Below, in pieces: positions 40,282 to 64,000 of a DNA stretch of 64,000 bases (its first letter is position 1; each line of letters starts with the position of its first letter). A program made the translations under genes and the position numbers. Source of the DNA: Endomicrobiales bacterium (lineage in GTDB: Bacteria > Elusimicrobiota > Endomicrobiia > Endomicrobiales > JALOBY01). Under the pieces are notes generated by a model. It searched no databases. It had not been told where the DNA came from and saw only the letters and a program-made list of their open reading frames with translations. The stretch covers positions 128,001 through 192,000 of the forward strand of contig CAWCNJ010000004.1 in NCBI GenBank assembly GCA_963796955.1. Reading direction: 5' to 3'.

Positions 40282-40310
40282 TTGACTTAAACTCAATTAT
40301 TGAATATAAT
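40282..40310 (+). promoter_or_regulatory. Sigma70-type promoter
   Basis: TTGACT-17 nt-TATAAT, about 40 nt upstream of a G-rich RBS and GTG at 40352. Confidence 0.8.
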
Positions 40311-40351
40311 TGCGAAAAGAATATAGTCTTCTGTTGATCAAGGGGGGGAGT

Positions 40352-41811: not shown

Positions 41812-43637
41812 ATCGGATCAAACCATACATAGCCCCGCTAATAGTATTTATTCCATCGCTTGCCTTACGGTTTGTGTATTTCTCACATTTAAGGTTAAAT
41901 CAATTGTTAATGACTCCCTTTGCTGATGCCCGATATTATTACGACTGGGCGCTGTCAATTGCAAAAACTGGTGATTTGCTTGGCAAAGGTCCCTTCTTTC
42001 TTAACCCCGGCTACCCATACCTGCTTGCCTTGCTGCTAAAGATATTTGATTATAGTATACCCTCAATTATATTGTTTCAGTTTGTTGTGGGTGCGTTATC
42101 GGCAGTTCTAGTCTATTGCATTTCCAAAAAATTCCTGCCGGTGCGTTTTTCGGTAACTGCGGGCATTTTGTATGGTGTATGTTCTGTTCCGATGTTTTAT
42201 GAGGGTTTTTTGCTTACCTTTGTTTGGATAACGCTATTTAACTTGATAGCGATGCTGAGTGTTCTTAATACAGAGGGCAAAAACGCATGGAAATGGTTGG
42301 CGTTGGCCGGCCTAAACATAGGTCTTTCTGCCATATTTCGGCCAAATATATTGTTGCTTGTGCCATTGTGTGTTGGTTGGATGTGGTTTTACACCAGAGA
42401 AAGCATATTTAAAAGCCTTCTTATTTTTTTTCTACCTATATTCCTGGTCTTAGCCCCGGTAATAATACGGAACGTAGTTGTACTAGGAGAACCCGTGATT
42501 TCCAGTGTGAGTACCGGTATCAATTTGTACATCGGAAATAGTGAACATTCTGACGGTTCAAATATGGCTATTTTTAAACTTGCTCCCCTTGCTAGCTCGC
42601 CTAAACATATGCTTGATACCTTCAAACAGCTAGCAGAAAAAGATTCTAAGATATCTTTGTCTTACTCTCAGGTTGACCGTTATTGGGAGAGGCAGTCTCT
42701 GAACTGGATTTATAATAATAAAGCTCGTTCTCTTCATAATCTTGTGAATAAGTTTTTGTTGTTTGTAAATGCTCGAGAAATAGAAAGTAATGTGCCGTTC
42801 TATTTAACAAAAAAAGTGGTGTTCCCACTGGCGTTTTGTCCGGGTGTCGGATGGTTCATTCCTTTTGCTGTGGTTGGTTTTTTTGTTTTCTGGAGAGATA
42901 AGAATAGTATGTTGTTAAGGGCATTTTTTGCTGTCCAGATAACAACTGTACTGATTATTTTTATGCTTAGCGAGTATCGGGCTCCTGTAATACCAGTTCT
43001 TGTAATATTTGCAATGGCAGGAGCGTATTGGCTATATGGGAAAGCTAAGCAAAAAGACTATCAAGGAATCTCAATTGCCTCGTGTTTTTTCTTTGTTCTC
43101 GTATTTATCTCTAACTGGAATAGAGCATCAGCGGCGACCGCCGGTTCGACTCTTTGGGAAGGCAGGTATGCCATGCAGGCAGGTGATTACATGAAAGCTG
43201 AAGAGCTCTTTCGTAAATCAATTTCAATTGACAGGTCGAACGTGGCTGGATATCAATACTTAGGTATCCTATACTTTTCTAAAGGACAATTTACATTGGC
43301 ACGCCAATGTTTTGAAAAAACCATAAGCATTTCTCCGACAACAGAAACGTATATTAGTCTTGGAACCATAGCCTTGAGACAAAATGATGCAACATTGGCA
43401 AAGAAAAACTTTGAGAAGGCAGTGCTGCTCGATGTCGGGGATTCTCGGGCAATAGACGGTCTAGCATGTGCTGAGTTTCTGTTAGGTGCACAAGATCGCT
43501 CATACCAATTGTGGGAACATGCATTGCACATCGTGTCTGATGAGAAACAACGTTCTATGATATTGACCAATGTTGCACTTGCGGCGAAGCAAAACAAAAA
43601 ATTTAATGAGTTAATCGAACAAAACAAAGGGGGGTAA
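41808..43637 (+). CDS. Polytopic GT-C (GT39/PMT/ArnT-like) glycosyltransferase with C-terminal TPRs
   Basis: DARYYYDWA first loop, PGYPYLLA, FYEG, RPN, GINLYIGN, EYRAP motifs; many hydrophobic helices; 3-4 TPR-like repeats. Confidence 0.82.
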   Translation: MNRIKPYIAPLIVFIPSLALRFVYFSHLRLNQLLMTPFADARYYYDWALSIAKTGDLLGKGPFFLNPGYPYLLALLLKIFDYSIPSIILFQFVVGALSAVLVYCISKKFLPVRFSVTAGILYGVCSVPMFYEGFLLTFVWITLFNLIAMLSVLNTEGKNAWKWLALAGLNIGLSAIFRPNILLLVPLCVGWMWFYTRESIFKSLLIFFLPIFLVLAPVIIRNVVVLGEPVISSVSTGINLYIGNSEHSDGSNMAIFKLAPLASSPKHMLDTFKQLAEKDSKISLSYSQVDRYWERQSLNWIYNNKARSLHNLVNKFLLFVNAREIESNVPFYLTKKVVFPLAFCPGVGWFIPFAVVGFFVFWRDKNSMLLRAFFAVQITTVLIIFMLSEYRAPVIPVLVIFAMAGAYWLYGKAKQKDYQGISIASCFFFVLVFISNWNRASAATAGSTLWEGRYAMQAGDYMKAEELFRKSISIDRSNVAGYQYLGILYFSKGQFTLARQCFEKTISISPTTETYISLGTIALRQNDATLAKKNFEKAVLLDVGDSRAIDGLACAEFLLGAQDRSYQLWEHALHIVSDEKQRSMILTNVALAAKQNKKFNELIEQNKGG

Positions 43638-43641
43638 TGTT

Positions 43642-46176: not shown

Positions 46177-46204
46177 TTGAAAAAAAAATGAATTCTGCTA
46201 TGAT
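46177..46204 (+). promoter_or_regulatory. Candidate sigma70 promoter P1 for the riboswitch-led operon
   Basis: TTGAAA-16 nt (includes an A run)-TATGAT with extended TG. Confidence 0.55.
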
Positions 46205-46246
46205 TTAGTGAGTGAATTTGTTTTCATGGCAGAGCCAAAATAGCCA

Positions 46247-46275
46247 TTGACGAAATCAGGGTTTTCTGCAATAGT
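46247..46275 (+). promoter_or_regulatory. Candidate sigma70 promoter P2
   Basis: TTGACG-17 nt-AATAGT with extended TG, about 35 nt before aptamer 1. Confidence 0.45.
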
Positions 46276-46308
46276 ATTAGTGAGGGAGTCCAGATTGATC
46301 CTTCGCAT

Positions 46309-46397
46309 TGACGATAAAGGCAAACCAGATGAAAGTCTGGGGCGCAAAACCACGGGGCTTAAGATAGGGGCTATCTACGCCAGCCGGGTTACCGAAG
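46309..46397 (+). ncRNA. c-di-GMP-I (GEMM) riboswitch aptamer 1
   Basis: CGATAAAGGCAAACC-AGAT-GAAA-GTCT-GG-GGCGCAAAACCACGG...AGCCGGGTTACCGAA matches the class-I pattern; G at the G20-equivalent position. Confidence 0.9.
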
Positions 46398-46460
46398 CAG
46401 ATGTTGTTCTGTAGCTGTTTTTCATTTTGGTGTCTCAGGTCGCATAAAGACCCCTATCTC

Positions 46461-46508
46461 AGGCTACTGTGGCTCAGATGTGATGAGCGATGGTAGTCTT
46501 TGTTTTTT
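46461..46508 (+). terminator. Terminator of riboswitch 1 expression platform
   Basis: AGGCTACTGT/ATGGTAGTCT plus GCTCA/TGAGC stem, followed by TTGTTTTTT. Confidence 0.72.
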
Positions 46509-46543
46509 GGTGGAACATGAAGCAATTGCTCTTTCAAACGAAG

Positions 46544-46702
46544 TTCCGACAAAGGCAAACCCGGTGAAAGCCGGGGACGCAAAGCCGCCTCGCATGATGC
46601 GAGGGTTCTACCCGAAAGGCGGGTGGAATACGGGTCTAAAACGACAGTCCGAAGTCCGAAGTCCGGAGTCCGGAGCATCGTTAAGACGGCCGGGTTACCG
46701 AA
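46544..46702 (+). ncRNA. c-di-GMP-I (GEMM) riboswitch aptamer 2, expanded variant
   Basis: CGACAAAGGCAAACC-CGGT-GAAA-GCCG-GGGACGCAAAGCC-[43 nt]-ACGGGTCTAAA...AAGACGGCCGGGTTACCGAA. Confidence 0.85.
46646..46673 (+). repeat. 4 x heptamer AGTCCG(A/G) in the P3 apical loop of aptamer 2
   Basis: AGTCCGA AGTCCGA AGTCCGG AGTCCGG. Confidence 0.9.
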
Positions 46703-46818
46703 GAGCTGAGAATCGTTTCCCCCGAAGAATAGGGGAGCCCAGACGATTTTTAGAAACAGTTAAGAGCACGCATAGCTTATATAATAAGCTACTCGCGCGC
46801 GAATTAACGAACTTAGGT

Positions 46819-46862
46819 AACCGGACTGCCAGACCCACACATGGCTGTTCGGTTTTTTGTTT
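46819..46862 (+). terminator. Terminator of riboswitch 2 expression platform
   Basis: AACCGGAC-T-GCC / GGC-T-GTTCGGTT stem followed by TTTTGTTT, just before the RBS of 46880. Confidence 0.7.
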
Positions 46863-46879
46863 GAAAGGCGGAGAAGAAA

Positions 46880-47275
46880 ATGAAAACACGGTTCGCGATG
46901 AAAATGATGCTGTTGACGATCGGCCTGCTGCTGAACAGCTGGGGCGCCCCCCGTTTCACGGCCCAGCTCACGCAGCCGCTTGTTGTCAGCGTCACCAATT
47001 ACCCGAACCCGTTCGACAGCCGCTGCGAGAGGACCACCATCCTGCTCTCGCTGGCGCAGGAATCGCAGGTAAGCATTTCCATCTACGATCTGCTGGGTAA
47101 CATGGTGCGGCAGTTCCCTTCGATGAGCGAGGATGCCGGCACCACCAGCATTGTCTGGGATGGGACGAACGATGACAAGGAGAAAGTGGCAAAAGGCGGA
47201 TATCTGGTGCTGGTCGTGGCCAATAGTGAGGCCGGTACATCCCAGGTAATACGAAAGGTCGGCGTTTTGCATTAG
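46880..47275 (+). CDS. Signal peptide + stand-alone T9SS/FlgD-Ig-like CTD protein
   Basis: GGAG RBS; TNYPNPF...IYDLLGNMVR...WDGTNDDKEKVAKGGY...IRKVGVLH*. Confidence 0.85.
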   Translation: MKTRFAMKMMLLTIGLLLNSWGAPRFTAQLTQPLVVSVTNYPNPFDSRCERTTILLSLAQESQVSISIYDLLGNMVRQFPSMSEDAGTTSIVWDGTNDDKEKVAKGGYLVLVVANSEAGTSQVIRKVGVLH

Positions 47276-47285
47276 TGACAAAAAA

Positions 47286-48923
47286 ATGAAAAAGAAACTG
47301 GCAACCACCAATCTCATAGCGATCTTCAAGTCTCTGGCCTGCTGCGCCAAAGCGCTTGTGGTGGTTTGCGTTGTTCTCTTCGGACTTCTGATTTCGGACT
47401 CTGGACTGGTGTATGCCGACAACACCGGCGGCCAGGCTGGCCAGTTCCTTGCCTGGGGCGCCGGAGCCCGTTCTCTGGGGATGGGCGCGGCCTTCTTCGC
47501 TGTAGCTAATGACGCATCGGCAACATACTGGAACCCCGCCGGGCTGCCGCAGCTGGACCGCAAGGAGCTTATGGCGCTGCACGTAACGTTGTTCGCCGAT
47601 ACGACCTACGATTTTATTTCTTACGTACATCCGACGCCGAACCTGGGCGTTTTCGGTATAAACCTGACCCGTTTATATTCCACGGGATTTGAAAAAGTTA
47701 ACATCACGTTTGATTCCACAAAGACCGACATCGTCGACATTCAAAGCATGGGAACATTTGATGATTCCCAGACCGCCCTTACCCTGGCGTACGGCAAGAA
47801 TATCCGCGACGGCATTGCGATCGGCGGTTCGTTCAAGTATATAACCCACACGCTGGATACCTCAACGAACGGATTCGCTACCTTCGACGTAACATCGCTG
47901 GTGACCGGCGTAACTTCGGCGCTGCCGGACATGAAGATGGCCTTCGGCATAAACAACATCATGAGCAGCGCTTTCGGCGACACGGAAGACAAACTGCCGA
48001 TGATACTTCGCGCAGGCATTTCGCAGCCGTTCCTGAAGAACAAGCTGCTGCTTGCGGCCGATATGAACAAAGGCATGAGCTCGGACATGGAGTGGCACCT
48101 GGGCACCGAATACTGGCTGCTGAATTTCGCAGCATTGCGCGTGGGCTTTAAAGGCCAGCAGGGCATCAGCGAAACAACGGCCGGATTCGGTCTGAGATAC
48201 CGCGATTACGGATTTGACTATTCTTTCGGGCTGACGGATCTGGGTATGTCGCAGCGGGTGAGCGGTTCCTGGCGCTTCGGCCTCTCCGTGAACCAGAACA
48301 AGGAAGCCCTGGTTCGCCGCTACATTCAGGAAGGCATGGAAGCATACACCAAGGGTAATTTCCTTCTTGCGCTGAATCGCATGGAAGCGGCTCTTGACAT
48401 AGACCCGTCCAACAAGGACGTCCAGAAAATGTCTAAACGTCTGCAGATGGTCATAGGCTTTATACCGTCCGCCAAAGCTGAGAACGAGGAAGAGACGGCT
48501 ATCCGCAAGGGTGTGGCCGCCTTCACCGAGAACGATGACAAGGGCGCCATAAACGCCTTGCGCTACGCCTATTACAAGAACCCCGCGAACCTGAAAGTGC
48601 TGCACCTGTTGAACGCTATGGAAAAAGAAATGGGTATCAGTATCACACCGGTATATAAGGAAGAGGCGGCCGGCTTTACCATGCTGGATCAGAAAATTTA
48701 TGATGCGCGCCAGGCTATTATTGAAGGTAAATATGATCAGGCGCTGATCAAGTGCCAGGATATAATGAACCTGGAGCCGGAAAACGTGACCGCACTTGAA
48801 ATGATGGGTTCTGCCTTCTTCATGATGGACCAGCCGGAAAAGGCGAAGCAGGTATGGATGAAAGTGCTTGAGATAGATCCGTCGAACAAGGTGGTACCTG
48901 AGTTCCTTAATCAGTTGAAGTAA
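47286..48923 (+). CDS. PorV/PorQ-family beta-barrel fused to C-terminal TPR repeats
   Basis: FLAWGAGARSLGMGAA...NDASATYWNPAGL; barrel ends ...DYSF...QRVSGSWRF; then about 200 aa of TPR-like helices (ALDIDPSN, LEPEN, LEIDPSN). Confidence 0.87.
   Translation: MKKKLATTNLIAIFKSLACCAKALVVVCVVLFGLLISDSGLVYADNTGGQAGQFLAWGAGARSLGMGAAFFAVANDASATYWNPAGLPQLDRKELMALHVTLFADTTYDFISYVHPTPNLGVFGINLTRLYSTGFEKVNITFDSTKTDIVDIQSMGTFDDSQTALTLAYGKNIRDGIAIGGSFKYITHTLDTSTNGFATFDVTSLVTGVTSALPDMKMAFGINNIMSSAFGDTEDKLPMILRAGISQPFLKNKLLLAADMNKGMSSDMEWHLGTEYWLLNFAALRVGFKGQQGISETTAGFGLRYRDYGFDYSFGLTDLGMSQRVSGSWRFGLSVNQNKEALVRRYIQEGMEAYTKGNFLLALNRMEAALDIDPSNKDVQKMSKRLQMVIGFIPSAKAENEEETAIRKGVAAFTENDDKGAINALRYAYYKNPANLKVLHLLNAMEKEMGISITPVYKEEAAGFTMLDQKIYDARQAIIEGKYDQALIKCQDIMNLEPENVTALEMMGSAFFMMDQPEKAKQVWMKVLEIDPSNKVVPEFLNQLK
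47379..47408 (+). repeat. 4 degenerate heptamers (TTCGGAC-like) inside a signal-peptide coding region
   Basis: TTCGGAC TTCTGAT TTCGGAC TCTGGAC; reverse complement of the aptamer-2 loop repeat. Confidence 0.75.
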
Positions 48924-48996
48924 AATATAAGAGTATCTAAAAGGATCTGGTTTAAAAAGATGCAACAGCTTACAAAAGTTTTTAAACAAAACACGC

Positions 48997-49041
48997 TGAA
49001 AAGCCCGACACTCTGTGAAAAAACAGGGAGCCGGCTTTTCA
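48997..49041 (+). other. Intergenic hairpin between PorV-TPR and the FliF-FliG gene
   Basis: TGAAAAGCC...GGCTTTTCA outer stem with CTCTGT/ACAGGG inner stem; function unclear. Confidence 0.5.
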
Positions 49042-49073
49042 TTGCCTTATACCATATTCAACAGGAGCTCATT

Positions 49074-50843
49074 ATGAAATTGGTCGCGCGGGCGCTGTTC
49101 TTCTGTCTGCTGGTGCTGATGCCGGCCTTTGCCGCATCCACCGACAACAGCGGCGGGGGTAAGACCGCCGAGATTTCATTGCTTGAACAGGAATCAAAAT
49201 TTGAGAAAGACAAGTCGGACTATCTTCAGCAGAACGTGGTAGACAAGATACTGGGGCCCGGCAACGCCGTGGTGATCGTTGACGTGGAGCTGGGCATAGA
49301 GACCAAAGTTACGAACCAGGGCGCGAAAGAGAAAAAAACCGAGCGCAAGAAGCGCCTCGGTGAAGTGGAATATCTGCTGCCCGGCGTGCCGAACCCGAAG
49401 TCTGTCGCGAACGAATCCCAGCCGGGCGAATCGAAAGAAGAGACGGGAGCCGCGGAAGAAACGAAAACAGAATCAAAAACGGTCATAAAGAAGCTGCAGG
49501 TAACGGTGCTTTACGATGAAAAAATAGTCCAGGAGAAACTGGATACCGTTAAAGAAGCTATTATAAATTTCCTTAAGCTGGACCCGAAGCGCGGCGACAA
49601 GATAGAGTTCAAGAAAACAAAATTCACCAGCGGATTCTTCGAAGAAATGATGAAGCCGCTGATACTGATTCCTCTTATCATAGCGCTGCTGGTATTGTTC
49701 TTTCTGTTCGGGCCGTTGGCCAGTTTTTTCCGCAATTATGTGCGTACGCTTGCTGAACACGGCGGAACAGAAGTTACCGTCGACTCAAAATTTGAAGGTG
49801 ATAAGGGCGATGAGGAAGGAGCCGGTGGCGCAGGCGGCGGTGGCGTGGGAGAAGGCATTCTCGGCGAAGGCGACGGTAAGAAATATATACCTTTTGAATA
49901 TATAAACGATGACAATCTGAAAAGGCTTGTCTATCTGGTAAAGCGCGAGCCGCCTGAAACGATATCGCTGGTGGTCAGCTACCTGAAGCCCGAGTACGTT
50001 AAGGAACTGCTGAACGCCCTGACACCGGAACTGCAGGCGAAGGTGGCCACCGAAATGGCGACGATCCGCTCGCTGGACATGGATGATGTTCAGAAAGTGG
50101 ATAACTACATAAAGGAAAAGATAGAGTTCCTTATCGGCGGATTGTATCACCTGCTTAACGTGCTTGATAAAGTAGACCCGATCACGCAGTCCAATATATT
50201 CGAATACCTTAAGAATGAAAAACCGGACCTGTATGAAATGGTGCGGAAATTCGTGCTGATGTTCGACGATATACCCAATTTCCCGGACCAGGCGATGCAG
50301 GTGATAATCCGCGAGCTTAAGACCCAGGATATGGCGAAAGCACTGCGCAACGCCGAGCCCGAGATCATGAACAAATTCCTTGCCAATATGTCGACGAACG
50401 CTTCCGCCATTTTAAAAGAAGAAATGGAGTACGGCAGGCCCCTTACCGATGCCGAGGTTGAGGAAGGCCGCAAACAGCTGATGGATGTGGTAAAGAAGCT
50501 GGAGGCGGAGAACAAAATATTCCTGCGCGAAAAGCCGAAGTCCGGCGTGCTGGAAGGCCTGGAGGCCGGTAGCAACGATAACACCAGCTACAACGAATAT
50601 TATCAGGCAGGCGTGGGTTCTTATGAAGCGGGGGAGTACGACGCGGCCTTGCCTTACCTTGAATACTGCACACAGCTGGATCCTACACAGCCGGCGGGCT
50701 TTCAATATCTGGGCGCTGCATATTACGCGCTTGGGCGTACCGCCGAAGCGGTAGCAGCGTACGAAAAAGTGGTTGAGCTGGACCCGACCAACGAAGAACT
50801 AAAAAACTGGCTTGCTTCGCAGAGCGCCAATAAACTCGCATAA
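49074..50843 (+). CDS. FliF C-terminal (RBM3/beta-collar)-TM-FliG middle + C-terminal domain-TPR fusion protein
   Basis: AGGAG RBS then MKLVARALFFCLLVLMPAFA; VDKILGPGNAVVIVDVEL, LPGVP, IKKLQVTVL, LDPKRGDKIEF (FliF-like); one TM helix; PFEY...EPPETISLVVSYL (FliG_M); GG...LMFDD...KFLANMS...LKEEMEY (FliG_C); TPRs. Confidence 0.85.
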   Translation: MKLVARALFFCLLVLMPAFAASTDNSGGGKTAEISLLEQESKFEKDKSDYLQQNVVDKILGPGNAVVIVDVELGIETKVTNQGAKEKKTERKKRLGEVEYLLPGVPNPKSVANESQPGESKEETGAAEETKTESKTVIKKLQVTVLYDEKIVQEKLDTVKEAIINFLKLDPKRGDKIEFKKTKFTSGFFEEMMKPLILIPLIIALLVLFFLFGPLASFFRNYVRTLAEHGGTEVTVDSKFEGDKGDEEGAGGAGGGGVGEGILGEGDGKKYIPFEYINDDNLKRLVYLVKREPPETISLVVSYLKPEYVKELLNALTPELQAKVATEMATIRSLDMDDVQKVDNYIKEKIEFLIGGLYHLLNVLDKVDPITQSNIFEYLKNEKPDLYEMVRKFVLMFDDIPNFPDQAMQVIIRELKTQDMAKALRNAEPEIMNKFLANMSTNASAILKEEMEYGRPLTDAEVEEGRKQLMDVVKKLEAENKIFLREKPKSGVLEGLEAGSNDNTSYNEYYQAGVGSYEAGEYDAALPYLEYCTQLDPTQPAGFQYLGAAYYALGRTAEAVAAYEKVVELDPTNEELKNWLASQSANKLA

Positions 50844-50866
50844 AAGTTACTTTGGGAGACCAAAAA

Positions 50867-53800
50867 ATGGACATCTTTAAAAACAAAAAACCGGCTGAAG
50901 GGACCAACCCCCAGGTGGAGACGCCACGGATGGCAGAGCCCCAGCCGCCAACCGCGCAGCCGCCCGTTCCGGTGATTTCCGACAGCCAGGCTATGGCCGA
51001 GGCCAGGGCCCGCGCGCGTGAACAGTTGAACCTTATGGAGCAAAAGATCGCTCAGGAGCGCGAAGCCTGGTCGCATAAAGTCAAGGAAAAGGCCGAAGAG
51101 CAGGTTTCCTGCAACGCGAAGCTGGATATGCTGGTAAATCGTATCGCTCTTGAACGCGAGCGCCATGAAGCGGAGCTTGTCCTTATGCAGCAGAGCATCG
51201 ACAACGATCTTAAGTCTATCGACGCGGCGCTGGAAGCTGAGACCGCAAAATGGACGGAGCGCCTTTCGTTGAAGGATAAGGATATTGAAGATGCCAGGCA
51301 CCGCTCGGCCTTTGAAGAGACCCAGAAGAAAATAGAGTCTGAACAATCCCTGCGCGCTCTTAAAGTTGAAAAAGACGCGCTGGAACAAAAATTCAAAAGC
51401 CTGCAGCGCTCCATGCTGGAAGAACAAAATAAGTGGCTCGGCCAGATACGGCTGAAAGAAGAAGAGATCGTAAACCTTAAAACACAGATCGCGTTGCACG
51501 AAGAACAGATGAAAACCGACGAAGAAAAGAACACGTTGACCAGGAAGGAGTCGGAAGAAAACTGGCATACGCAGATAAAGGAGCTGGAGGAGCGCCTGGA
51601 TACCCAGCGCACCGACTGGACCCGCGTGCTCGCGAAAAAAGAAGAAGAGCTTTCAGCCATCAAAACAACGCTGGAGCAAAAACTTTCCACCCTTGCGATA
51701 GAGACCGAGCGCAAAGAGAACGATATCCGCCTTCTCAAGACCCGCATGGAAGAACGCATCAAGGCCGCCGAAGAATCCCTGAACGGAGAGAACGCGCGCT
51801 GGCAGCAGCTGCTGGGAGAACGCGATGAGGAGTTTAAAAAACTGCGCGTGGAGCTGATGCTGCGCGACAGTCAGGAAAAAACCGAACGCCAGAAAAAATA
51901 TCAGGACCTTAAAGACGCCGAATCCACCGCCTCCCGCCGGATCCGCGAGGCGAAACAAAAACTGGAAGATGAAAAACAGGTCTGGCAAAAGCGTATAAAC
52001 GATAAAGATGAAGAGCTGAAGAACCTCAAGATCCAGGCCGAGCTTAAGCTGAAAGATATCCAGGACGACCGGGCACTCCGGCAGCGCCGCGCTGAGGAAG
52101 AAAAATCAGCGCTCTCAGCCACGCTCGCAAGCTTGCAGGAAAAACTTGAAGAAGAACGCGTTACTCTGCAAAAAAGCGTTGCGGAAAAAGACGCGGAGAT
52201 AGAAACCTGCCAGCAGCAGTGGCAAAATACGCACGATGCGATGACCCGGGAAGGCGAAGCTCACATCAAAGAGCTGCGGGCGCAAAAAGACAGTTATGAA
52301 AGAGAAGTGCTTGCCCTGGAAGCCCAGCTGGCCCAGGAAAAACAGAAATGGAATACATTGATTCAGGAAAAGGACAAGCAGCTCTCTGTCGCGCGCGCCG
52401 AATATAACGCCAGAGAAGCGCTGGTGCACCAGGAACTGAATATACTGGAAGAACAGTTGCGCAAAGAGCAGCAGCCGCTGCTGCGACAGGTGCACGATAT
52501 TGAAGGAAAAGTAGGGGAATTGCAGCGCGCCGCCCAGATAGAGATATCGCACCGCGAGACCCAGAAAAAATCGTTACAGGATCAATTTCAACGCCGCGAA
52601 GAGAATCTGCGCCAGCGCCTGAATATTCAAATAGAGAAGATCAAGGATTCGGAAAATTCTCTCGCGGGCCGTGTTGCCGAAATAAAGGCGCATATGGACG
52701 CGCAGGGAAAAGAGGCGCAGTCAAGGCTTGAGGCTCTCGAAGAAGAAGGACGTCTGATCTCCGGACAGATGTCGCAGGAACATGAGCGGATAGAGGCTGA
52801 GAAAGCCAAGTTGTCTGAAAAATATTTGTCTGCCAAACTGGAACTTGAAGAGAGTATTAAAAAACTGGAAAACGAATACGACCTGATGCATACGACCTTG
52901 CAAGCTGAAATAGAGGAAAAGACCTCGGAACTTGCCGGCGAAGAGACCCGTCTGCACGCTGCCGAAGAAAGGATCGCAAAAGAAACAGCACAGCGCGAAA
53001 AAGAGTTCGCGGACCTTAAGGCCCGCGGCGACAGCCAGCTGGCGCAGCTGAGCGGCGAACTGGAAGCGCTTAAGAAACGCAATGACACCGATATACGTTC
53101 CCAGGTCGCCCAGCTGGAACTGCTGCGGCGCCAGGGCGCGGCGCGTGAGCAGGAGATGGCGGCGGATATAGAGGTCATCAGGCAGAACTCCGAGTCGGAA
53201 TTGAAACCCATGGCGGACCGCAAGGAGCAGCTGCGCTCACAGCTGGATTCCCTGCGCGCGCAGTCACAGACGAAACTGAAAGCCATCGACGGGCGCATTA
53301 GCGCGCTTCGGGCGCAGCATGACGCTATCGAAAAAGAATTCCTGGGCAGAAAGAACGTCGTCACGGAATCAATAAACGGTGTACAACGTGACAGTGAAGG
53401 AAAACTCCGCGCGCTTCAAAACGAACGCACGGAGCTGGAAGCTGCGTTTGCCCGCGAAATGTTGTTGAAGGAAGAAGAATTCTCAGCTCTCGAAAAAGAA
53501 GTGAACGGGCATGTGCAATTATTACAGCAAAAGAAGGATGCGGAGCGCGAAGAAGCCCGTATGCAGATGGAAAGCATGCGCGCCGACATAGACAAACTGT
53601 ATGAAGAAGTCTCGCGGGTTGAGACGGAATACCCGGAAATACTGGCCACGCGCCAGGAAGAACTGGTTTCTCTTGAAAAACAGGTCAATGAACGCGCGCA
53701 ATATTATCAGAAACAAACCCTTCAGGCGGAAAAATCGCTTGAGAATTATCAGCGTCGGGCCGAAAGCCGCATAGAGACCGTCCGGACGCAGCTGGACCAG

Positions 53801-55753: not shown

Positions 55754-55775
55754 CTAACCCTTCAGGGAGGATGTC

Positions 55776-58700
55776 ATGGCCGACGAAAAGTTACCAAAAG
55801 TTCCACCGTTACCGCCCGCAAGACCAGCCGGGAGCGGACCAACCCCGCCGAAGCCGCCTATGCCGGGGGCCGGTGCCAACCCGCCCGCGGTGAAACCGGC
55901 GTTGCCGGGTAAGCCCGCGATAAATCCGGCGGCGGCGCCGCGCCCTATGCCCGGGCAGGCGGCTCGTCCTCCTGTGAACACCCAAACCCAGCGAAACGTA
56001 ACGCCGGCCCAGCCGTCCACCGGCTATTCTGAGGTTGACGATGCCCGCAACGCGCTGGAAGGCCAGATAAACGAACTGCAAAAACAACTGCAGTCCGAAC
56101 GCGAGAAGCTGCTGCTGCAGACCGTGCGCGCAAAGAAGAAGAAGCGATGTCGGCCAAAGTTGAAGAATCGATCAAGGATATTCAGGAACGTGTCCGCCGG
56201 GAAAAACGCGATCAGGAATTGCAGGAATCGCTGGCGAAGGCCGAAGCGTACAATAAAGAGATGGAGGCGCGCCTTGCCGCCGAGCGCCAGACCTGGGTGG
56301 AGACCCTTAAAACGCAGATCGGCCAGAAAGATTCGCAGGAAAAAGAAGTGGAATACCAGTTCGAGCTGCGCATGAAGGAGCTGGAACGCCGCTGGCATGA
56401 GGAAAAACTCGCCTGGTCGCAGGCCATCAAAGCGAAAGACGAAGAGGTGATACGTCTGCACCGTGAAAAAGAGAGCGCGGTAGGCGAAGAGCGCGCAGCT
56501 TCCGAGAAACGGGTAACCGAACTTACCCGGGAACGCGAGTCCCTGCAGCGTGAGCTGATCGATGTACGCGATGTACGCCAGGAAGAGCGCAGCTCGCTTC
56601 TGGAAAAACTTGAGGGCCGCGATAAGGAGTTCATGGGCCTGAAGGCCCAGCAGGCGATGCTGGTGACCCAGGTGCGCGAAGCTAAAGACAAACAGGACCA
56701 GATGCGCCAGCTGCTGGAAAAATTCCGCGCTGAAAAAGAGAACCTGCATTCGCTGCTGGAAAATAAGGATAAAGAGTTCTACCTGTTCAAAACGCAGTTC
56801 GCCCTCTACCAGACCCGCTCAAAATCGGAGCAGGAAAAGCTGCTTAAGGAACTGGTATTGTTCAAAGATCAGATGGGCAAGGACGCGCAGCAATATTCCA
56901 GCGTCCTGCGCGCCAAAGAAGAAGAGATGAACCTGCTGCGTCGCGCTAACGAAGGCAGGGAAAGCGAGATCCGTAACCAGTTGGAAAAGAAAGAACAGGA
57001 AGTCGCCTCAACGGCGGCGCAATACGAGGCTCGCATAAAAACGCGCGAAGCCGAACTGCGTTACGAACTGGAACGCAAGGAAACGGAACTTAAAGGTCAG
57101 ATAGTCCATATTGAAGAACAGGTCAGAGCGCGCGTCGGTGAAATTGAGAACCTGAAAGAACGTCATACCGAGCAGCTGCGCGCCAGGGACGGCGATATAA
57201 AGAGCGCGGCGGAAAAACTGGCGGCTATGCAGGTGGAAGTTGCCGTTGCCAGACAAAATACACAGTCCGCCGAACAGCGTATGGCGCTTGCACAATCAGA
57301 GGCTGCCAGGCTCAAGGAGATCATAGAAGAAAAAGAAGTTGACGCGGCTTCCGCACAGGCACAGTTCACCGCCCGCCTTGAGCAGGCTGCTTCCGAAGTG
57401 CGTCAGGCGACCGAACGCGAACAGGCGCTGCGCCTTGAGCTGGCTGTCGCCCGGCAGAACATGCAGGTTTTTGAAACCCGCATAGCAGCGGCGCAGTCGG
57501 AAGTTGCCGGGCTTAAAGAAGTGATCGCGAGAAAAGACGCTGAAGCTTCTGAGCGCCAATCGGAGTTCAGCTCACGCCTGGAGCAGGCGGCATCGCAGCT
57601 GCGCTCCGTGCAGGAACGGGAGCAGACGCTGAAAGTAGAACTGGCTTCTGCGGCCGCCGTGCGCCATGATCTTGAAAAAGCGGTGGAGAGAGAACACGAG
57701 GAAGCGGAGCGCCAAAAAGCTCAGATCGTTGAAAATGAAAATCTTTACCGGAACGGCTTATCCCAGAAAGATACGGTCATCAGCGCCAAAGAACTTGAAC
57801 TTGCCGGCATGCGTGAAACAATAGCGGCTCTTCGTATGGAACTGGTTAAAAACGAAAGTATGCAGCGCGAGCTTACCGTGGCGAATGACCGTCTTGACGT
57901 GGCATTATCCCAGGCAAACGCGGCCTTAAGCGATCGCGATATGCGCCTCGCCAGGGCCGGCGACAGGGAGAAGGGCCTTGCTGATACTATCAACGAACAT
58001 GTCAATGAATTGTCCGCTGTCCGCGCAAGCCTTGCCGCGGTTGAAAATGAAGCGGCCGCGTTGCGCGGCGCGATAACCGAACGGGACGGCCGGATAAAGG
58101 AAGGCGACCGCAAGGAAGACGAACTGCGCGCTCAACTCCTTTCGAAAGAAGGTGAGATCAACACCCTGCGCGAGACGATGCAGCAGCGCGAGGCGATGCT
58201 GGTGACGGTGCAGACCCAGGCCGAACGCCGCGAGAACGACATGAAGATCGCCTTCGCCCAGCGTGATGCCGAACTGAACAACCGCTGCGCGGCCCTTGAG
58301 GCGACGCTGGTTGAGAAAGACCGTTTCCTCGCCGGTTCCGCCGAAAAAGAACGCGCCTTATCGAACGCCCTGGCGAAAGAAGAGGAAAAAGTTTCCGAGC
58401 AGCTGGAACACGTGAGGGAACTTGTTTCAAGAGAGAACGAGCTCAAGATGTCTCTTAACCAGAAAGAGAACGCGTATGCCGCTGAACGCGCCGCGATAGA
58501 ATCGCGCATAGCGGAGCGCGACCGCCAGCTTACCCAGCAGGCGCAGGCGTTTGAGGCTGAGCGCAGAAAATACGAAGAAGCCGTCTCACGGGCGGAACGT
58601 TCATTGCAGGAAGCTTCAGCGGCCGCTCAGCTGCAGCTTGCCTCCCGTGAAAAAGAGATCGAACGCCTTAACAGCGCGGTAGCGGCCGCCCAGCATGCGG

Positions 58701-59848
58701 TCAATGCCGCCAAACAGGAAAACGCCCTGCATGAGCAGGAATTGCAGCTGGGCGCAAAACAGCGCGAAGCCGCTCTGCTTATTGATATAACCAACGCCCG
58801 GGAAAAAGCTAAGAAGGCCGAGCAGGTCCTCAGCGATTCTCAGCGTCAGCACCAGCATCTGCTGCTGTCACAGGAACAGAACGCGATGCAGCGCGAGGCG
58901 GCGTTGAGCGCGGAAAAGAACGCGGCAAAAGAGCTTCTGGCCGGCCTGAAAGCCGATAACGATACCCTGCGGCGCGAAGGCGAAAAAATGCTCGCCGAAG
59001 TGAACGCCAGTCAGCATCGCATGAACGAGGTAAAGGAATTATACGAGCGGCAGCTGAGAGCCAAGGAAGAAGATCTGGCCCAAATTAAGGCGAACAGGCT
59101 GGCGTTCGAAGACTCTGTGCGCCACCAGATCAATGAAGAATACCGCCGGCATCTGGAAGGGGTGCAGAGGGAAAAGCAGGACGGCGAACGCGCCTTCATG
59201 AACCAGATACAGACCCTGAGGGACACCATGCGTACCGACCTGCTGCACGTGCAGGAAACCATGACCCGCGACCACTCGCAGCTGGAACGCCAGCTGCAGG
59301 AAAAAGAGGCCCGGCTGCACGAACTCCAGCAGGCTTTAAAAGACGAAGCATTACGCGAGCAGGAACAGAAAACCGCCCTGGACAAGAATGTTGAGAGGGT
59401 GCGGGAAGAATACAAGGCATTGCTTGCAGAAGAAACAAGAAAACATGAAATGGAGCGCGATGTAATAGCGCGCAATACCAAGCATATAGACGATGAGTGT
59501 TCTTCGCTGCGCCAGAGAGCAGAGGGGCTAGCCTTTCAATTAAAACAGGCGAATGATACCCTGCAGGGGAAAAATAAGGAAGTCATGACCCTTCAGGAAA
59601 ATCTTGACACCCTGACCATTCAAAACAGGAAGCAGGCACAGTATTCTTCTAACGATGCCGCCGCGAAAACGGCTAAATTCGGCCCGGAAGACACCGTTAT
59701 ACTTGAGCCGCATGTTCCCCAGCCGCAGATCCAGCAGCCGGCGCCAGCAAAGCAGCGTAAACCGCTGATAGGCCGTATCTGGGATAATTTGAACGAACCC
59801 GTCATAGAGATCGGCGGAGATAACATGAAGAAGAAAGACCATGAATAA
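55776..59848 (+). CDS. Long coiled-coil protein with Pro-rich N-terminus (one apparent frameshift at ~56131)
   Basis: GGGAGG RBS before ATG 55776; adding one base at CGCGC^AAAGAAGAAGAA joins ORF 55776..56375 to 56147..59848 as ...TVRAKEEEAMSAK... Confidence 0.82.
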
Positions 59849-60509
59849 CGAACTGCATAAGCTTAGAGAAAAATGGGAAGCGTCTTTCAGCGCTCTGGAA
59901 TGCACGGCGCGCGGTGCCGGCAGCAGCGATGCTTTCCGCAACAATGAATTCGCATTGCTGCGCGAGGAGGTGGGCGCGCTCAAGGCTGAACTGGTGGAAG
60001 CCAGGCGTGAGCGGGAAGCGTCCCGGTACGCGGACACCCGCGCGAGTGAGCTGGAAAACGCCATACGCCTGCAAACGCTGGACAACGAGAATAACAGGCG
60101 TGCTCTGGAAGAACTGTGCCGGAGCCGCGTTCAGGAAGAAAACCTTTCCGTCCAGGCGGCGGAAAAGGCGGCGAAAACGATCGCCGGTGAAAAAGAACGT
60201 GCCGAAAGCCTTGCCGAAGAATTGTTCTTTGCACGTGCCGAAAATGAGGCGTTACGGCAGCGTGTCGCGGCCGCCGATGCAGCCGCGTGCGATGCCCGCG
60301 CCGCAGCCGTGGAACGCGAGAAGTCATTTTCCGGCCTGCTTGAGCGGCTTAACCGCGCCGAATCAGAGTGTGAGCGCATCTCACAGAATTTTATCCAATA
60401 CCGGATGGAAATAATCACCCGCGGCAACAAAGAAGAACGCCATCGCCGCCATAGCGAGCCGGTCCTGGGTGAGAAGATCATATCCTGGCTGTCCAACAAA
60501 GAGCGTTAA
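59841..60509 (+). CDS. Short coiled-coil hypothetical protein
   Basis: 222-aa E/A/R-rich ORF overlapping the upstream stop; ends PVLGEKIISWLSNK. Confidence 0.75.
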   Translation: MNNELHKLREKWEASFSALECTARGAGSSDAFRNNEFALLREEVGALKAELVEARREREASRYADTRASELENAIRLQTLDNENNRRALEELCRSRVQEENLSVQAAEKAAKTIAGEKERAESLAEELFFARAENEALRQRVAAADAAACDARAAAVEREKSFSGLLERLNRAESECERISQNFIQYRMEIITRGNKEERHRRHSEPVLGEKIISWLSNKER

Positions 60510-60529
60510 GACATAATTAAAGGGGAAGT

Positions 60530-63500
60530 ATGGGTCGATCGAGTAACTATTTATTCATTGCCCTTATCTTGTTGCTGGCCGGCTTTGTCGTTGCGTGGGC
60601 TGCGCCCGCTCCCGTCGGCGACCTTGCCGCTTCGTCGGCAGGCTATCGCCATATTACCCTGACCTGGAGCACGCCGTACGATGCGGCGGCTTCCACCACG
60701 CCTGCGTATTACGATCTGCGCTGCTCGACCACGACCCCCATTATAACGGCCGCGGACTGGAATAACTGCCCCTCTTCTCCGGTCTACCCCTATAATATTG
60801 TTTTCACAACGCAGGGTGTTTCAGCCGGCAGCCCTGTCTCGTTTTCGGTGACCGGGCTTACGAACGGCCGCACCTATTTCTTCGCCATCAAGTCTTCCAC
60901 CGATAATATTTCCTGGTCGGCGCTTGATACGTCGAGCCCTGAACCCTTTAATACTCCCTTCAATACGGTACCCTACACCCTTCAATCATACGATTTCCCG
61001 GCTGCCCGTTCTGAGGTCTATACTTCAACCCCCACGTTGACGTGGCACAGCGATACGGTAACGCCGGGTTCCGACGACAGCGTCTGGGGTGATTCCATAG
61101 TTACCTATACCGTTGAATTATCAACAGATGTTTCATTTGGTTTCCATTCATCCGAAGATGTTTCCATACCTTCTTATACCACATATCCGCTTGCTGAAAA
61201 TACCACGTATTACTGGCGTGTGCGACCGCACGACAGCGAGGGGCTTCAATCTGCCGGTTTCCTTGATCAGACGGACCGCTGGTTCATGGTCAATGCGAAA
61301 AAAGACGCGCCAACTCCCTTCAACCTGCTATTGCCGGCGAACCTGGATATCATCAACAACAATACGCCGTCCCTGCAATGGTCGGCCTCTACCTGCGCCG
61401 ATCCCATGCCGGAAGGCATTGTCTCGTATACCGTCCAGTACAGCACCAGCCCTACCTTCAATATTGTGTGCACCACCACGGTCGCGGCCCTGGCGGGATC
61501 TCCCTACGCGGTGCCGTCGGCCTTGATCGAGAATGCGCACTATTTCTGGCGGGTATACGCGGTCTCCGGCTCCGGTGTTTCAACGATGTCATCTTCCACC
61601 GGCACCTTTTGGGTCAATGCCATACATACGGGGCCCGGCATATTCGCGCCTGCCGGACCGCCAAACGCGTCGATCGTGCGGCTTTCCACGCCAACTATTT
61701 CCTGGAGCCCTTCGGCCGACCCGGATCCCGGCTCAGCGGTCGTTTATAACGTCATATATTCTTCCACCGATATTACGTTGAGCATGGATTATCACGTCAT
61801 CTCAGGCATTGGCACTACCTGGTATGTTCTGCCGCCGCTGCAGGACGGTGTTGTTTACTGGTGGCAGGTGCAGTCTGATGACGGGGCCGGCGGCCAGTAT
61901 CAAAGCACAGAATGGTCATTTTCCGTGCATGCGGTTAATGCGCCACCAACGCCGTTCGATCTGCTCAGCGCTTCAGGAACGGTCGCGACACTTAAACCTG
62001 CATTTTCCTGGCAGGCCGCCACTGACCCCGAGGGCGACGCCTTCTCCTATACAGTGCAATACACGACGACTGATTTCTCCGCGGCGGTTTCCTCAGCCGG
62101 GTTGCATGTCGCTTCTTTTACGCCGGCCGTTAATCTTACGGAAAATGCACAATATCTGTGGCGTGTGATGTCCGTAGACAGTTTCGGCGCGCAGCGTATG
62201 TCGAACCAGACCTGGCCGTTGGCTATAAATGCCAACCCCGAGCCGCCGCTGCCGTTCTCGCTTGTTTCACCGGCTGATCAGGCCCAGATAAGTTATCTTG
62301 CTCCTACGCTTATCTGGCAGGCGACAACCGATCCGGACCCGGGCGATTCTATCGCCGGTTATACCGTCAGATATTCGACTGCTCCCGATCTGAGCAATGC
62401 GGTTTCCGTAGCAGGAATTTCTGTCACCTCCTATACCGTCACGCCGCCGCTCACCGCGAACACCACCTATTTCTGGAGCGTGCGTGCGGTTGCCACGCAG
62501 AGCGGCCAGACGGACGCAGCGGCGATCCGCAGTTTTTTCGCGGTGAACCAGCCGCCGCTGGCCTTCTCGCTGCTCGCTCCTTCGGGCATCATTGCCACAC
62601 GCACGCCCACGCTTAACTGGCAGGCCGCGCCGGATCCGGAAGGCGATGCCGTAACCTACACGGTCCGCTACGCAACGAATGCGGCATTTGCCGGCGCCGT
62701 GTCGGTGTCCGGTATAACGAACAATTATTACACGACCCCCGCGCTGATAGAAGACGCCAGCTATTACTGGAAAGTTGATGCCGTCGATGTATGGGGGCAT
62801 GTGCGTAACTCAACGAACGTTCTGCCGATCGCCATTAACAGCATTGATTCACCCCCGGCGGTATTCGTCTTGATCTCCCCACCTGACGGCACGGTATGCG
62901 GGGTACGCCCTGTATTTTCCTGGCAGGCCTCATCGGATACCGATCCGGGCGACAGAGTTTCCTATGAGTTATGGTACTCCACTTCGCCGGTCTTTGCCTT
63001 TAAAACGGTGGTAGCTTCTCTTCCGGGAACCTCGTACACAACCGTCCAAAGCCTTATACCCGGCACGACCGTATACTGGAAAGTCAGCGCCCTGGACAAC
63101 GCCGGCAACCGTACGATGACAACCGCCTGGCGGACGTACATCTCTCAGGCAGAGCCGCCGGAGACACCCGCAAATTTTACCGCCATGTCCTCGGCTGATG
63201 GTCGCACGATCACGCTTACCTGGCAGGCGCCGGGTGCGAACGCCGATGGCTCAGCGTTGACACCTCTTGATGGTTTCTGTATTTACCGCGCCTACGATCT
63301 TAACGGCGTGCTGGCCTCAGTAACGCCTCTTATTATCCCTGCTGGCATGACCTCGTATACCGAGCAAATAGCCGCCGGCCAGACCGTGTATTATCAAGTG
63401 AGCGCAAGGAATATCCTTGGCGGTGAAAGCACCCGGTCCCGCGCTGTTTCAGCCGGCGCGCAGGGAGAACTTTTAAGCTACACGAATGATTGCGATCTGA

Positions 63501-64000
63501 TACTTTCGTGCCCGCCAAATGTGGTCCCCTCGTCCTATTCAGTCACGGTAAGCCGCGACGGCGCACTGGAATTCGGGAACGTTTTGCGTCATTATTCCGT
63601 GCACGTCGCTGCCGGCGGCGTCGAGCTGAAAAAATATGTGTTTTCAAAGCCGCTTACCATCTCGCTTAAGACGGACACCGCGATCCAGTCGCCGGCCGCC
63701 CATGCCCCGGTGCAGGCGCAACTCACCACGGGTATTTTCTGGCATAACGGCGTTGAATGGATCTACCTTGGCGGTGAAAACGCTTCCGGCGATATCAGCG
63801 TCAGGGCAAGTTCCGCGGGGGAATATGAATTGCGCGCCGTATCACGTTCATCTGAATTCCACGTTCTCTCTCACTGGCCGGCGATAATTACGCCGAACGG
63901 GGACGCCATCAACGATGAGTTCAACATCACATTTGAAAACCCCATGTCGGACGCGGTCTCCGGCGAGATTTACGACCTCCGGGGCGCGCGTATCGCGGAA
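60530..64000 (+). CDS. Exported FN3-repeat protein with type-B-like (gliding motility-associated, TPNGD) CTD; 3' truncated
   Basis: Not in the ORF track because it has no stop in the window. AGGGG RBS; MGRSSNYLFIALILLLAGFVVAWA signal; FN3, 7 x PxFxW..DPD..YxWxV repeats, FN3; ends IITPNGDAINDEF...GEIYDLRGARIAE in the same frame. Confidence 0.87.
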   Translation, partial: MGRSSNYLFIALILLLAGFVVAWAAPAPVGDLAASSAGYRHITLTWSTPYDAAASTTPAYYDLRCSTTTPIITAADWNNCPSSPVYPYNIVFTTQGVSAGSPVSFSVTGLTNGRTYFFAIKSSTDNISWSALDTSSPEPFNTPFNTVPYTLQSYDFPAARSEVYTSTPTLTWHSDTVTPGSDDSVWGDSIVTYTVELSTDVSFGFHSSEDVSIPSYTTYPLAENTTYYWRVRPHDSEGLQSAGFLDQTDRWFMVNAKKDAPTPFNLLLPANLDIINNNTPSLQWSASTCADPMPEGIVSYTVQYSTSPTFNIVCTTTVAALAGSPYAVPSALIENAHYFWRVYAVSGSGVSTMSSSTGTFWVNAIHTGPGIFAPAGPPNASIVRLSTPTISWSPSADPDPGSAVVYNVIYSSTDITLSMDYHVISGIGTTWYVLPPLQDGVVYWWQVQSDDGAGGQYQSTEWSFSVHAVNAPPTPFDLLSASGTVATLKPAFSWQAATDPEGDAFSYTVQYTTTDFSAAVSSAGLHVASFTPAVNLTENAQYLWRVMSVDSFGAQRMSNQTWPLAINANPEPPLPFSLVSPADQAQISYLAPTLIWQATTDPDPGDSIAGYTVRYSTAPDLSNAVSVAGISVTSYTVTPPLTANTTYFWSVRAVATQSGQTDAAAIRSFFAVNQPPLAFSLLAPSGIIATRTPTLNWQAAPDPEGDAVTYTVRYATNAAFAGAVSVSGITNNYYTTPALIEDASYYWKVDAVDVWGHVRNSTNVLPIAINSIDSPPAVFVLISPPDGTVCGVRPVFSWQASSDTDPGDRVSYELWYSTSPVFAFKTVVASLPGTSYTTVQSLIPGTTVYWKVSALDNAGNRTMTTAWRTYISQAEPPETPANFTAMSSADGRTITLTWQAPGANADGSALTPLDGFCIYRAYDLNGVLASVTPLIIPAGMTSYTEQIAAGQTVYYQVSARNILGGESTRSRAVSAGAQGELLSYTNDCDLILSCPPNVVPSSYSVTVSRDGALEFGNVLRHYSVHVAAGGVELKKYVFSKPLTISLKTDTAIQSPAAHAPVQAQLTTGIFWHNGVEWIYLGGENASGDISVRASSAGEYELRAVSRSSEFHVLSHWPAIITPNGDAINDEFNITFENPMSDAVSGEIYDLRGARIAE

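Follow-up and report, generated by a model that had tools for sequence, protein, structure and literature searches.

The DNA analysed here is a window of 64,000 nucleotides (nt) from an uncultured member of the Elusimicrobiota (GCA_963796955.1, contig CAWCNJ010000004.1, positions 128,001-192,000), whose assembly comprises 2.10 Mb in 11 contigs and is 81% complete. The part of the window from 46177 to 64000 carries a co-oriented gene run headed by two cyclic di-GMP (c-di-GMP) riboswitches, in which a one-chain fusion of the flagellar rotor proteins FliF and FliG stands among outer-membrane barrel, sorting-domain and giant coiled-coil proteins. Together with ~3.8 kb beyond the window, this part probably forms one c-di-GMP-riboswitch operon for a non-flagellar, MotAB-driven rotor machine working on outer-membrane carriers, a reading that is favoured here with some reserve. 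The features, in coordinates of the window, are the following:

46177..46204, + strand: promoter-like site, TTGAAA-16-TATGAT with a TG before the -10 element (consensus match only, 10/12)
46309..46396, + strand: c-di-GMP-I riboswitch aptamer 1 (Rfam RF01051, 84 bits; gathering score 35)
46544..46702, + strand: c-di-GMP-I riboswitch aptamer 2 with a 103-nt insertion in one helix (RF01051, 45.8 bits; gathering score 35)
~46706..46753, + strand: terminator-like hairpin with a U-run 3' of aptamer 2 (-25.1 kcal/mol, z -4.1, 0/200 shuffles as good)
46880..47275, + strand: 131-aa protein made up of a signal peptide and a type-A sorting domain only (TIGR04183 29.6 bits, cut-off 23; FlgD_ig 42.5 bits)
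47286..48923, + strand: PorV/PorQ-family outer-membrane barrel (residues ~51-336) with a tetratricopeptide repeat (TPR) tail (337-545; NF033709 125.2 bits, cut-off 90; TPR_2, TPR_19)
48960..50843, + strand: rotor protein of 627 aa, a FliF(RBM3/collar)-FliG(middle and C)-TPR fusion (YscJ_FliF_C 25.0 bits, cut-off 23.8; FliG_M 49.9; FliG_C 95.6; TPR)
50852..55753, + strand: 1633-aa coiled coil with C-terminal TPR and no signal peptide; six Trp-marked repeats near the N-terminus at 61-residue spacing
55776..59848, + strand: second giant coiled-coil gene (Pro-rich N-terminus, conserved Trp-motif module, coiled coil) with a frame break at ~56110-56140
59841..60509, + strand: 222-aa coiled-coil protein (open reading frame, ORF)
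60530..64000, + strand, ending 138 nt past the window: FN3/Ig surface protein with a type-B (CHU_C) sorting domain (fn3 89.1 bits; Ig_Rha78A_N 95.9; CHU_C 37.3, cut-off 27)

A first-pass annotation of this DNA had described two c-di-GMP riboswitches leading a tight, co-oriented gene run, and this description holds: both RF01051 aptamers have a conserved core and score above the Rfam gathering score, the genes are identified by domain matches, and all of them lie on the + strand with gaps of -8 to ~150 nt. The domain identities in its gene list likewise stand, although the start of the second coiled-coil gene (55776), the probable start of the fusion (49074) and the end of the operon, which lies past the window, had to be revised. 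Within the leader, the hairpin at 46706-46753 is the probable expression platform of aptamer 2, as judged from its position and predicted fold, and a second hairpin with a U-run precedes the first start codon; the leader folds yielded no competing pairings that would indicate an ON or an OFF switch. Scans of the operon body for terminators and promoters returned counts close to the shuffled expectation, with 0 + strand sites in the intergenic gaps, and are uninformative either way.

The leader is conserved in relatives. Among 20 orthologous loci, taken around the best fusion orthologs of 20 genomes from 17 families, 18 carry a riboswitch on the same strand 1.6-3.1 kb 5' of the fusion; in the same 20 genomes, none was found at the orthologous fusion locus of G067 and G064. 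The tandem pair is present in 6/20 relatives, and a seventh has a sub-threshold second copy. Known c-di-GMP-I riboswitches, tandem forms included, share the core seen here and differ in the genes they control, which in this case are those of the rotor/outer-membrane-carrier operon. The assembly holds three c-di-GMP-I riboswitches in total, all within one 80-kb region, two of them being the tandem pair, and it codes for one or more GGDEF proteins of the response-regulator type. The third riboswitch (L008:4735-4796, 42.7 bits) lies 15 kb upstream of the window, where it heads a HEAT-repeat gene and a long same-strand series of giant immunoglobulin-like (Ig-like) genes. These genes (3535, ~2575, 2503, 2626 aa and more) occupy positions 1-39995 of the window, and the series ends with a 651-aa protein bearing an FlgD_ig-type C-terminal domain (CTD).

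The rotor protein was claimed in the first-pass annotation as a single FliF/FliG chain, which Pfam matches to FliF RBM3 and FliG, a PDB sequence match and structure models all bear out. Its FliG part matches Thermotoga maritima FliG (1lkv) with an E value of 1.7e-34 over the middle and C-terminal domains, and FliG_N scores 19.2 bits, below its cut-off of 25. Translation probably starts at Met39 (nt 49074) rather than at the called start, since orthologs align only from residue 37-46 onwards. The AlphaFold model (34 homologs, mean predicted local distance difference test score 75) begins with a helix read as a signal or transmembrane (TM) segment, with a hydrophobic core at ~40-58, followed by a periplasmic alpha-beta-beta-alpha-beta domain with a long hairpin and by a TM helix (~233-267); a disordered Gly-rich linker then leads to the FliG middle and C-terminal domains and three TPR-like hairpins.

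Structure searches with VIA-align were made with the full model and with the periplasmic domain. The full model matches FliG chains (Z 17.8, root-mean-square deviation (rmsd) 12.3 A over 217 residues, the domains being hinged), and the predicted FliG_C superimposes on the MotAB-bound FliG_C of 8ucs_H with Z 15.2 and an rmsd of 1.2 A over 88 residues. Because the results for the whole 627 residues were filled by FliG and TPR proteins, the periplasmic part was folded alone (41 sequences). Its top 3 among 48,161 chains are FliF S-ring/RBM3 structures (Z 13.4, 12.4 and 11.6), the best with an rmsd of 1.7 A over 102 residues; PrgK/EscJ follow next, at Z <=8.6. A Foldseek search with the same domain agrees, all 18 matches with E <=6.1e-5 being FliF. 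By domain matches and models, the fusion is thus a FliF cut down to its S-ring/collar module, with RBM3/collar only and neither RBM1 nor RBM2, joined through one TM helix to a FliG minus its N-terminal domain. The window copy contains no stop codons.

The barrel immediately upstream presumably exposes its TPR tail to the periplasm. Downstream of the fusion, the ORF called at 56147-59848 is the 3' part of the second giant coiled-coil gene, whose true start is 55776; a one-base frame break in an A/G-rich run near 56110-56140 splits the gene, as is concluded from orthologs that carry the Pro-rich N-terminus in one frame, and it could be an assembly error. A Trp-marked motif (W, ~7 residues, K-[DE]-[EK]-[ED]) is common to the 1633-aa protein, the head of the second coiled coil (56147-56450) and a 694-aa protein encoded beyond the window. 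The giant coiled coils had been proposed to be filaments, which finds no support: they have no signal peptide and are cytoplasmic by appearance. For the 222-aa coiled-coil protein no homolog was found at the thresholds used among 40 related loci, which comprise the 20 orthologous loci and 20 paralogous loci around fusions of a shorter class.

The CHU_C domain of the FN3/Ig protein is cut at the window end and complete 138 nt further on. The operon continues with a PorP/SprF-like barrel with LysM (PorP_SprF 29.1 bits, cut-off 22.3); neither the type-B nor the PorP model of NCBIfam reaches its cut-off (22.1 vs 35 and 21 vs 90.55, respectively). The 694-aa protein that follows (L007:3724-5808) has an N-terminal coiled coil and a hydrophobic stretch, and is read as having a putative TM helix (by eye) and a putative C-terminal propeller (SGL 19.8 bits, below the cut-off of 26.3). 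Genes on the opposite strand start after it.

The genome contains three fusion paralogs that are 27-28% identical to each other, and each of them adjoins a PorV/PorP-like TPR barrel and CTD proteins. Directly upstream of the two paralogs outside the window (C6 and C7) lies a TolB-like PD40 propeller gene (TIGR02800 103 and 77.9 bits, cut-off 343), which had no counterpart in the 40 related loci under the search thresholds applied. At the C7 locus, a gene for a four-helix protein of the 23S-rRNA-intervening-sequence type (L004:3534-3899, PF05635, 125.7 bits) is placed between the CTD protein gene and the PorV-TPR barrel gene.

Only two genes of the MotA_ExbB family are present in the assembly. 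Both are of the MotA type, with no TolQ/ExbB-type gene among the MotA_ExbB matches, and each is followed by two MotB genes whose products have plug and OmpA-like domains. One MotA-MotB-MotB set directly follows the C6 fusion paralog; the other (C3) is unlinked to a fusion and has genes for a response regulator and a hybrid kinase after it. Over its whole length, MotA is alignable with solved MotA/PomA (9lu9, E 9.4e-55), with Arg90 and Glu98 kept.

The flagellar families tested are otherwise missing. The 81%-complete assembly has 0 matches to FHIPEP (FlhA), Flagellin_N and Flg_bb_rod, for which positive controls worked in 4 genomes, and likewise 0 matches to FliMN_C and to YscJ_FliF (PF01514, canonical FliF), with working positive controls. 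GldK also gave 0 matches, in a search whose controls all stayed under the family cut-off; GldN lay outside the families searched. The earlier statement that no flagellar or Gld genes accompany the operon thus extends to the whole assembly for the families tested; that no SprA gene is present does not extend so far, as a divergent SprA/Sov-like protein of 1820 aa is encoded on another contig (C8, L046:7443-12905; TIGR04189 157.7 bits, cut-off 200, E 2.4e-46; SprA_N 24.4 bits vs cut-off 27). Its gene is flanked by lptF/lptG on one side and by a ComF-like gene on the other, with genes for a PorV-family barrel and for an M6 peptidase with CTD nearby.

Across the phylum, 201 genomes were searched for the fusion, MotA, FHIPEP and the SprA-like protein. 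The fusion is matched in 74/201 genomes and 54/76 genera, usually in 2-7 copies, and is nearly absent from two large families (f2 1/64, f19 1/58). MotA is found in 73/201 genomes and accompanies the fusion closely: 70 genomes have both, four the fusion only (three of them by weak matches), three MotA only and 124 neither, and of the first 20 foreign MotA matches, 19 have a fusion match within 2.1 kb, the remaining one being at a contig end. FHIPEP occurs in 5/201 genomes. A complete flagellar set elsewhere had been named as what would speak against a repurposed rotor; FlhA is missing here and from 69 of the 74 fusion-bearing genomes, and two FlhA-bearing genomes (G064 and G121) also hold fusion-type matches. 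The SprA-like protein is present in 178/201 genomes, host-associated-looking small genomes included.

Gene order, for which a synteny comparison had been suggested, is conserved at the orthologous loci. The PorV-TPR barrel lies directly upstream of the fusion in 19/20, a CTD protein upstream of the barrel in 16/20 and a small CTD-only ORF in the same place as here in 10/20. A homolog of the 1633-aa coiled coil occupies the same place in 12/20, the N-terminal module of the second coiled coil follows the fusion in 17/20, and an ortholog of the FN3 type-B protein is present in 6/20. The first-pass annotation had also called for a search for MotAB, and these genes were found beside the C6 paralog and in both sets of related loci. 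MotA and MotB lie inside 9/20 orthologous loci, all from distant families, and inside 0/9 of the loci of the same order or the same class. At the short-class loci, MotA-MotB-MotB follows the fusion in 19/20; nine have a PorV/PorP-like barrel-TPR gene upstream, and eight others a TPR-only gene after MotB. A tree of 31 MotA rows unites 9 of the 10 MotA proteins from orthologous loci in a clade of their own (support 100/99); the tenth sits on a long branch, and both MotAs of this genome fall among the short-class MotAs. Each of the four same-order genomes tested possesses a MotA-MotB pair with 70-75% identity to the orthologous-locus clade, in an unlinked position. Judged from gene content, the locus is an order-level variant in which the stator genes appear to have left the operon, while genes for a type-B cargo/PorP-LysM pair and for two giant coiled coils with Trp repeats appear to have been added; it is further marked by its tandem riboswitch leader and by the gathering of all riboswitches of the genome in this region. 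The operon-class MotA is 70-75% identical between distant families, compared with 35-45% for the fusion, which indicates strong constraint on a working stator.

In the proposed machine, the fusion would form a ring in the inner membrane that lacks both an export gate and an axle. Stators of the MotA/MotB type, anchored in the peptidoglycan, would turn this ring by ion flow; their genes lie outside the operon in this order and inside it in distant families. Since the fusion gene adjoins the PorV-TPR barrel and sorting-domain proteins, the likeliest output is work on outer-membrane carriers and adhesins: the ring would contact the barrel and act mechanically on carrier/adhesin complexes, moving, deploying or releasing surface proteins, with gliding-like movement or regulated attachment as candidate results. 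The giant cytoplasmic coiled coils and the TPR tails may act as scaffolds or spacers in place of a FliM/FliN C-ring, and c-di-GMP would decide whether transcription passes the leader. The idea of an envelope machine built from a repurposed rotor, as put forward in the first-pass annotation, thus retains its fusion, its synteny and its stators, while rotation, the moving or exporting of CTD proteins and the neighbouring giant proteins as its cargo remain conjectural. A more elaborate version is doubtful, though conceivable: a further surface engine of free-living Elusimicrobiota, in which a rotor with no axle and no export gate, turned by MotAB, would pass its rotation via periplasmic TPR tails to PorV/PorP-like carriers, and these would drive giant CTD-anchored adhesins over the surface or outwards from it to produce gliding or switchable attachment, with the cytoplasmic coiled coils as "rulers" instead of a C-ring and c-di-GMP as the gate.

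Several observations weigh against the proposed machine and call for caution. An alignment of 43 fusions, from which none was dropped (the three paralogs of this genome plus 20 fusions each of the window and short classes), shows the torque-helix Arg of FliG replaced in 43/43. The acidic pair of that helix is kept in the window class, which speaks in favour of the machine: the first residue is Glu in 21/21 and the second in 16/21. In the MotAB-adjacent short class, Glu stands at the first position in only 8/22 and at the second in 12/22. With the Arg lost and the acidic residue partly lost in the short class, the classical charge interface must be regarded as altered. The FliM-binding EHPQ motif is degenerate (Glu in 42 of the 43, His in 0, Pro in 33, Gln in 3), which fits the absence of FliM and also means that the flagellar model does not give the cytoplasmic architecture. 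A tail of ~100-140 residues after FliG_C is found in the window class only and holds the TPR in the window copy.

The stators raise difficulties of their own. No stator gene lies in the window operon, and the operon-class MotA clade is missing from the assembly, where tblastn found only the two short-class copies at 34-40% identity; as the assembly is 81% complete, loss of this MotA and an assembly gap are indistinguishable. The C3 stator set was considered as the operon's own and rejected, because its MotA groups with the short-class cassette MotAs. The second MotB of the C6 triplet (L005:11048-11707) has Asn for the channel Asp, which the first MotB keeps, and this hints at a possible mixed MotB pair in one stator. 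The same Asn-for-Asp second MotB was seen at L049:12874-13566, again next to a first MotB with Asp. Moreover, GldL and GldM gave 0 matches in the assembly in searches without a positive control, the single transcription unit is deduced from the gaps between genes, and the sampled genomes are kin, so that the counts are not independent and the co-occurrence overstates the support.

The neighbouring barrels and cargo also suit a different role, in which the fusion ring with MotAB replaces PorLM/GldLM and powers the export of CTD proteins through the SprA-like translocon and PorV/PorP-like shuttles; such a secretion energiser would not move proteins already at the surface. A SprA/Sov homolog, PorV-family barrels and both type-A and type-B sorting domains are all present, the cassette adjoins such barrels and cargo, and GldL, GldM and GldK gave 0 matches, although for GldL and GldM no positive control stands behind that result. 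However, the two families nearly devoid of the fusion retain the SprA-like protein (f2 44/64, f19 56/58), so the translocon works, or acts otherwise, without this motor, and the paralogous cassettes, of which a genome holds several and which each come with a barrel and cargo of their own, look like dedicated units and not like one general motor. These distributions weaken the role of a general T9SS-like (type IX secretion system-like) export energiser, export being one of the outputs named in the first-pass annotation, and make it an unlikely explanation. The altered torque helix would sit more easily with a fusion that does not turn but serves as a static trans-envelope scaffold or signalling platform, its FliG domains and TPRs docking the coiled coils and MotAB acting as a peptidoglycan anchor or ion-sensing unit. 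Such a scaffold would account for the Arg lost in 43/43, for acidic residues only partly kept in the MotAB-adjacent class, for a MotB without the channel Asp and for response-regulator and kinase genes after the orphan stator set. It is nevertheless judged slightly less likely again, given a full-length MotA of the MotA/PomA type with Arg90 and Glu98 kept, the much higher conservation of the operon-class MotA than of the fusion across distant families, and the retained ring-building RBM3/collar and FliG_C folds.

That both MotA_ExbB genes of the assembly are these MotAs, with no TolQ/ExbB type seen, could also mean that the cassettes replace TolQRA-TolB-Pal in tethering or constricting the outer membrane, and the OmpA/Pal-like domains of the MotB proteins and the TolB-like PD40 proteins upstream of C6 and C7 would agree with this. 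Yet the PD40 genes are unmatched in the 40 related loci and score far under the TolB cut-off, the absence of the cassette from whole families of the phylum would be odd for a housekeeping system, and the control by c-di-GMP riboswitches and the link to giant adhesin-like cargo are in keeping with a facultative function at the surface; a maintenance role of the Tol-Pal kind is therefore improbable. Least credible is a decaying remnant of an ancestral flagellar gene set, or part of a flagellum with its remaining components diverged beyond detection. The phylum ancestor may have been flagellated, as the few Elusimicrobiota genomes with FlhA suggest, but 2-7 intact fusion paralogs per genome in 54/76 genera, the conserved gene order and riboswitch, the absence of stop codons in the window copy, the fusion-type matches in the FlhA-bearing G064 and G121 and the 0 matches to six flagellar families with working positive controls make this very improbable.

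Set against the flagellar motor core, the rotor machine favoured here uses the same families and folds (FliF RBM3/collar, FliG middle and C-terminal domains, a MotA/PomA stator, MotB with plug and OmpA-like domains), and in most cassettes the genes of stator and rotor are neighbours. It differs in that RBM1/RBM2 and FliG_N are missing, FliM/FliN, export gate, rod, hook and filament were not found, FliF and FliG form one chain, and a TPR tail and giant coiled coils are added. In addition, none of the 43 fusions has kept the torque-helix Arg or the EHPQ His, two different MotB genes accompany each MotA, and several cassettes occur per genome, each adjoining an outer-membrane barrel.

The T9SS and gliding apparatus of Bacteroidota comprise SprA/PorV, PorP/SprF with type-B cargo such as SprB, and the GldLM motor. 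Elements like these recur here, namely PorV/PorQ-family barrels, a type-A domain, a type-B (CHU_C) cargo with a PorP/SprF-like barrel after it, on another contig a divergent SprA-like giant barrel that scores below the TIGR04189 cut-off, and a presumed ion-driven motor of the MotA/ExbB superfamily linked to surface adhesins. Unlike in Bacteroidota, however, no match to GldK, GldL or GldM was found, MotAB on a FliG ring is proposed in place of GldL5M2, the barrels bear TPR or LysM tails, and the phylum is Elusimicrobiota. Likeness to the Agl-Glt gliding machinery of Myxococcus, which has the AglRQS motor and the coiled-coil AglZ and has neither a FliG/FliF ring nor PorV-like barrels, lies in concept only: both would combine a MotA/TolQ-type motor with a complex spanning the envelope, an adhesin in the outer membrane and a long coiled-coil platform protein in the cytoplasm; no sequence relation was noticed here. 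Tol-Pal differs in its TolQ/TolR-type motor, which was not found in the assembly, where both MotA_ExbB genes are MotA-type with MotB_plug partners.

A single FliF-FliG chain has precedents from engineering. Full-length FliF-FliG fusions have been studied in Salmonella and Vibrio (PDB 8z4d; PMC6079021; bioRxiv 10.1101/2023.02.06.527414), and according to the accessible parts of these reports an engineered single chain still builds rings, which makes a natural one-chain rotor plausible. Those fusions join full-length FliF to full-length FliG in a flagellar system, whereas the present one is natural, joins RBM3/collar to FliG middle and C-terminal domains and occurs without a flagellum. For free-living Elusimicrobiota, the accessible part of a preprint reports that flagellar structural genes are missing and that "numerous homologues" of motAB, flbD and fliG are nevertheless present, and calls the role of MotAB in them unclear (bioRxiv 10.1101/2022.07.08.499144). 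The same part contains no description of the fusion, the cassette or the riboswitch, and the main texts, as far as accessible, of two papers on stator and flagellar evolution (PMC12505986, PMC13277936; supplements outside this scope) do not mention the fusion or cassette; the literature consulted offers nothing beyond the preprint's passing remark. The make-up of the operon, in a genome in which no flagellum genes were detected, points to an undescribed envelope machine made from flagellar motor parts.

If this is borne out, a conserved, multi-copy FliF-FliG-MotAB module in a mostly flagellum-free phylum would represent a new use of the flagellar motor. To our knowledge, FliG-based rotation is known from the flagellum only. 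A living FliF-FliG-MotAB module without type III export would also bear on the evolution of the flagellar motor, and its wiring to type-IX-like carriers would constitute a new coupling of ion flow to the cell surface. It would also be a candidate for how the uncultured, free-living Elusimicrobiota move over surfaces or regulate their adhesion. Two old questions would become open to testing, namely which flagellar motor parts are functional without the export apparatus and how T9SS-type sorting domains are handled outside Bacteroidota, and the one-chain minimal rotor would suit structural work.

Two further regions of the window were noted. Among the giant Ig-like genes, five consecutive same-strand ORFs (944, 465, 326, 362 and 1304 aa) at 20272-30734 have no Pfam match at E <=0.001. 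The stretch at 40310-46152 is low in G+C, at 41-46% vs ~55% around it, and has genes for another CTD-only protein (190 aa), for a membrane glycosyltransferase of the PMT_2/TPR kind and for a secreted protein of 836 aa that bears a phage tail-collar domain. At 40879-41811 it also encodes a PorQ-like barrel that lacks TPR (NF033709 151.6 bits).

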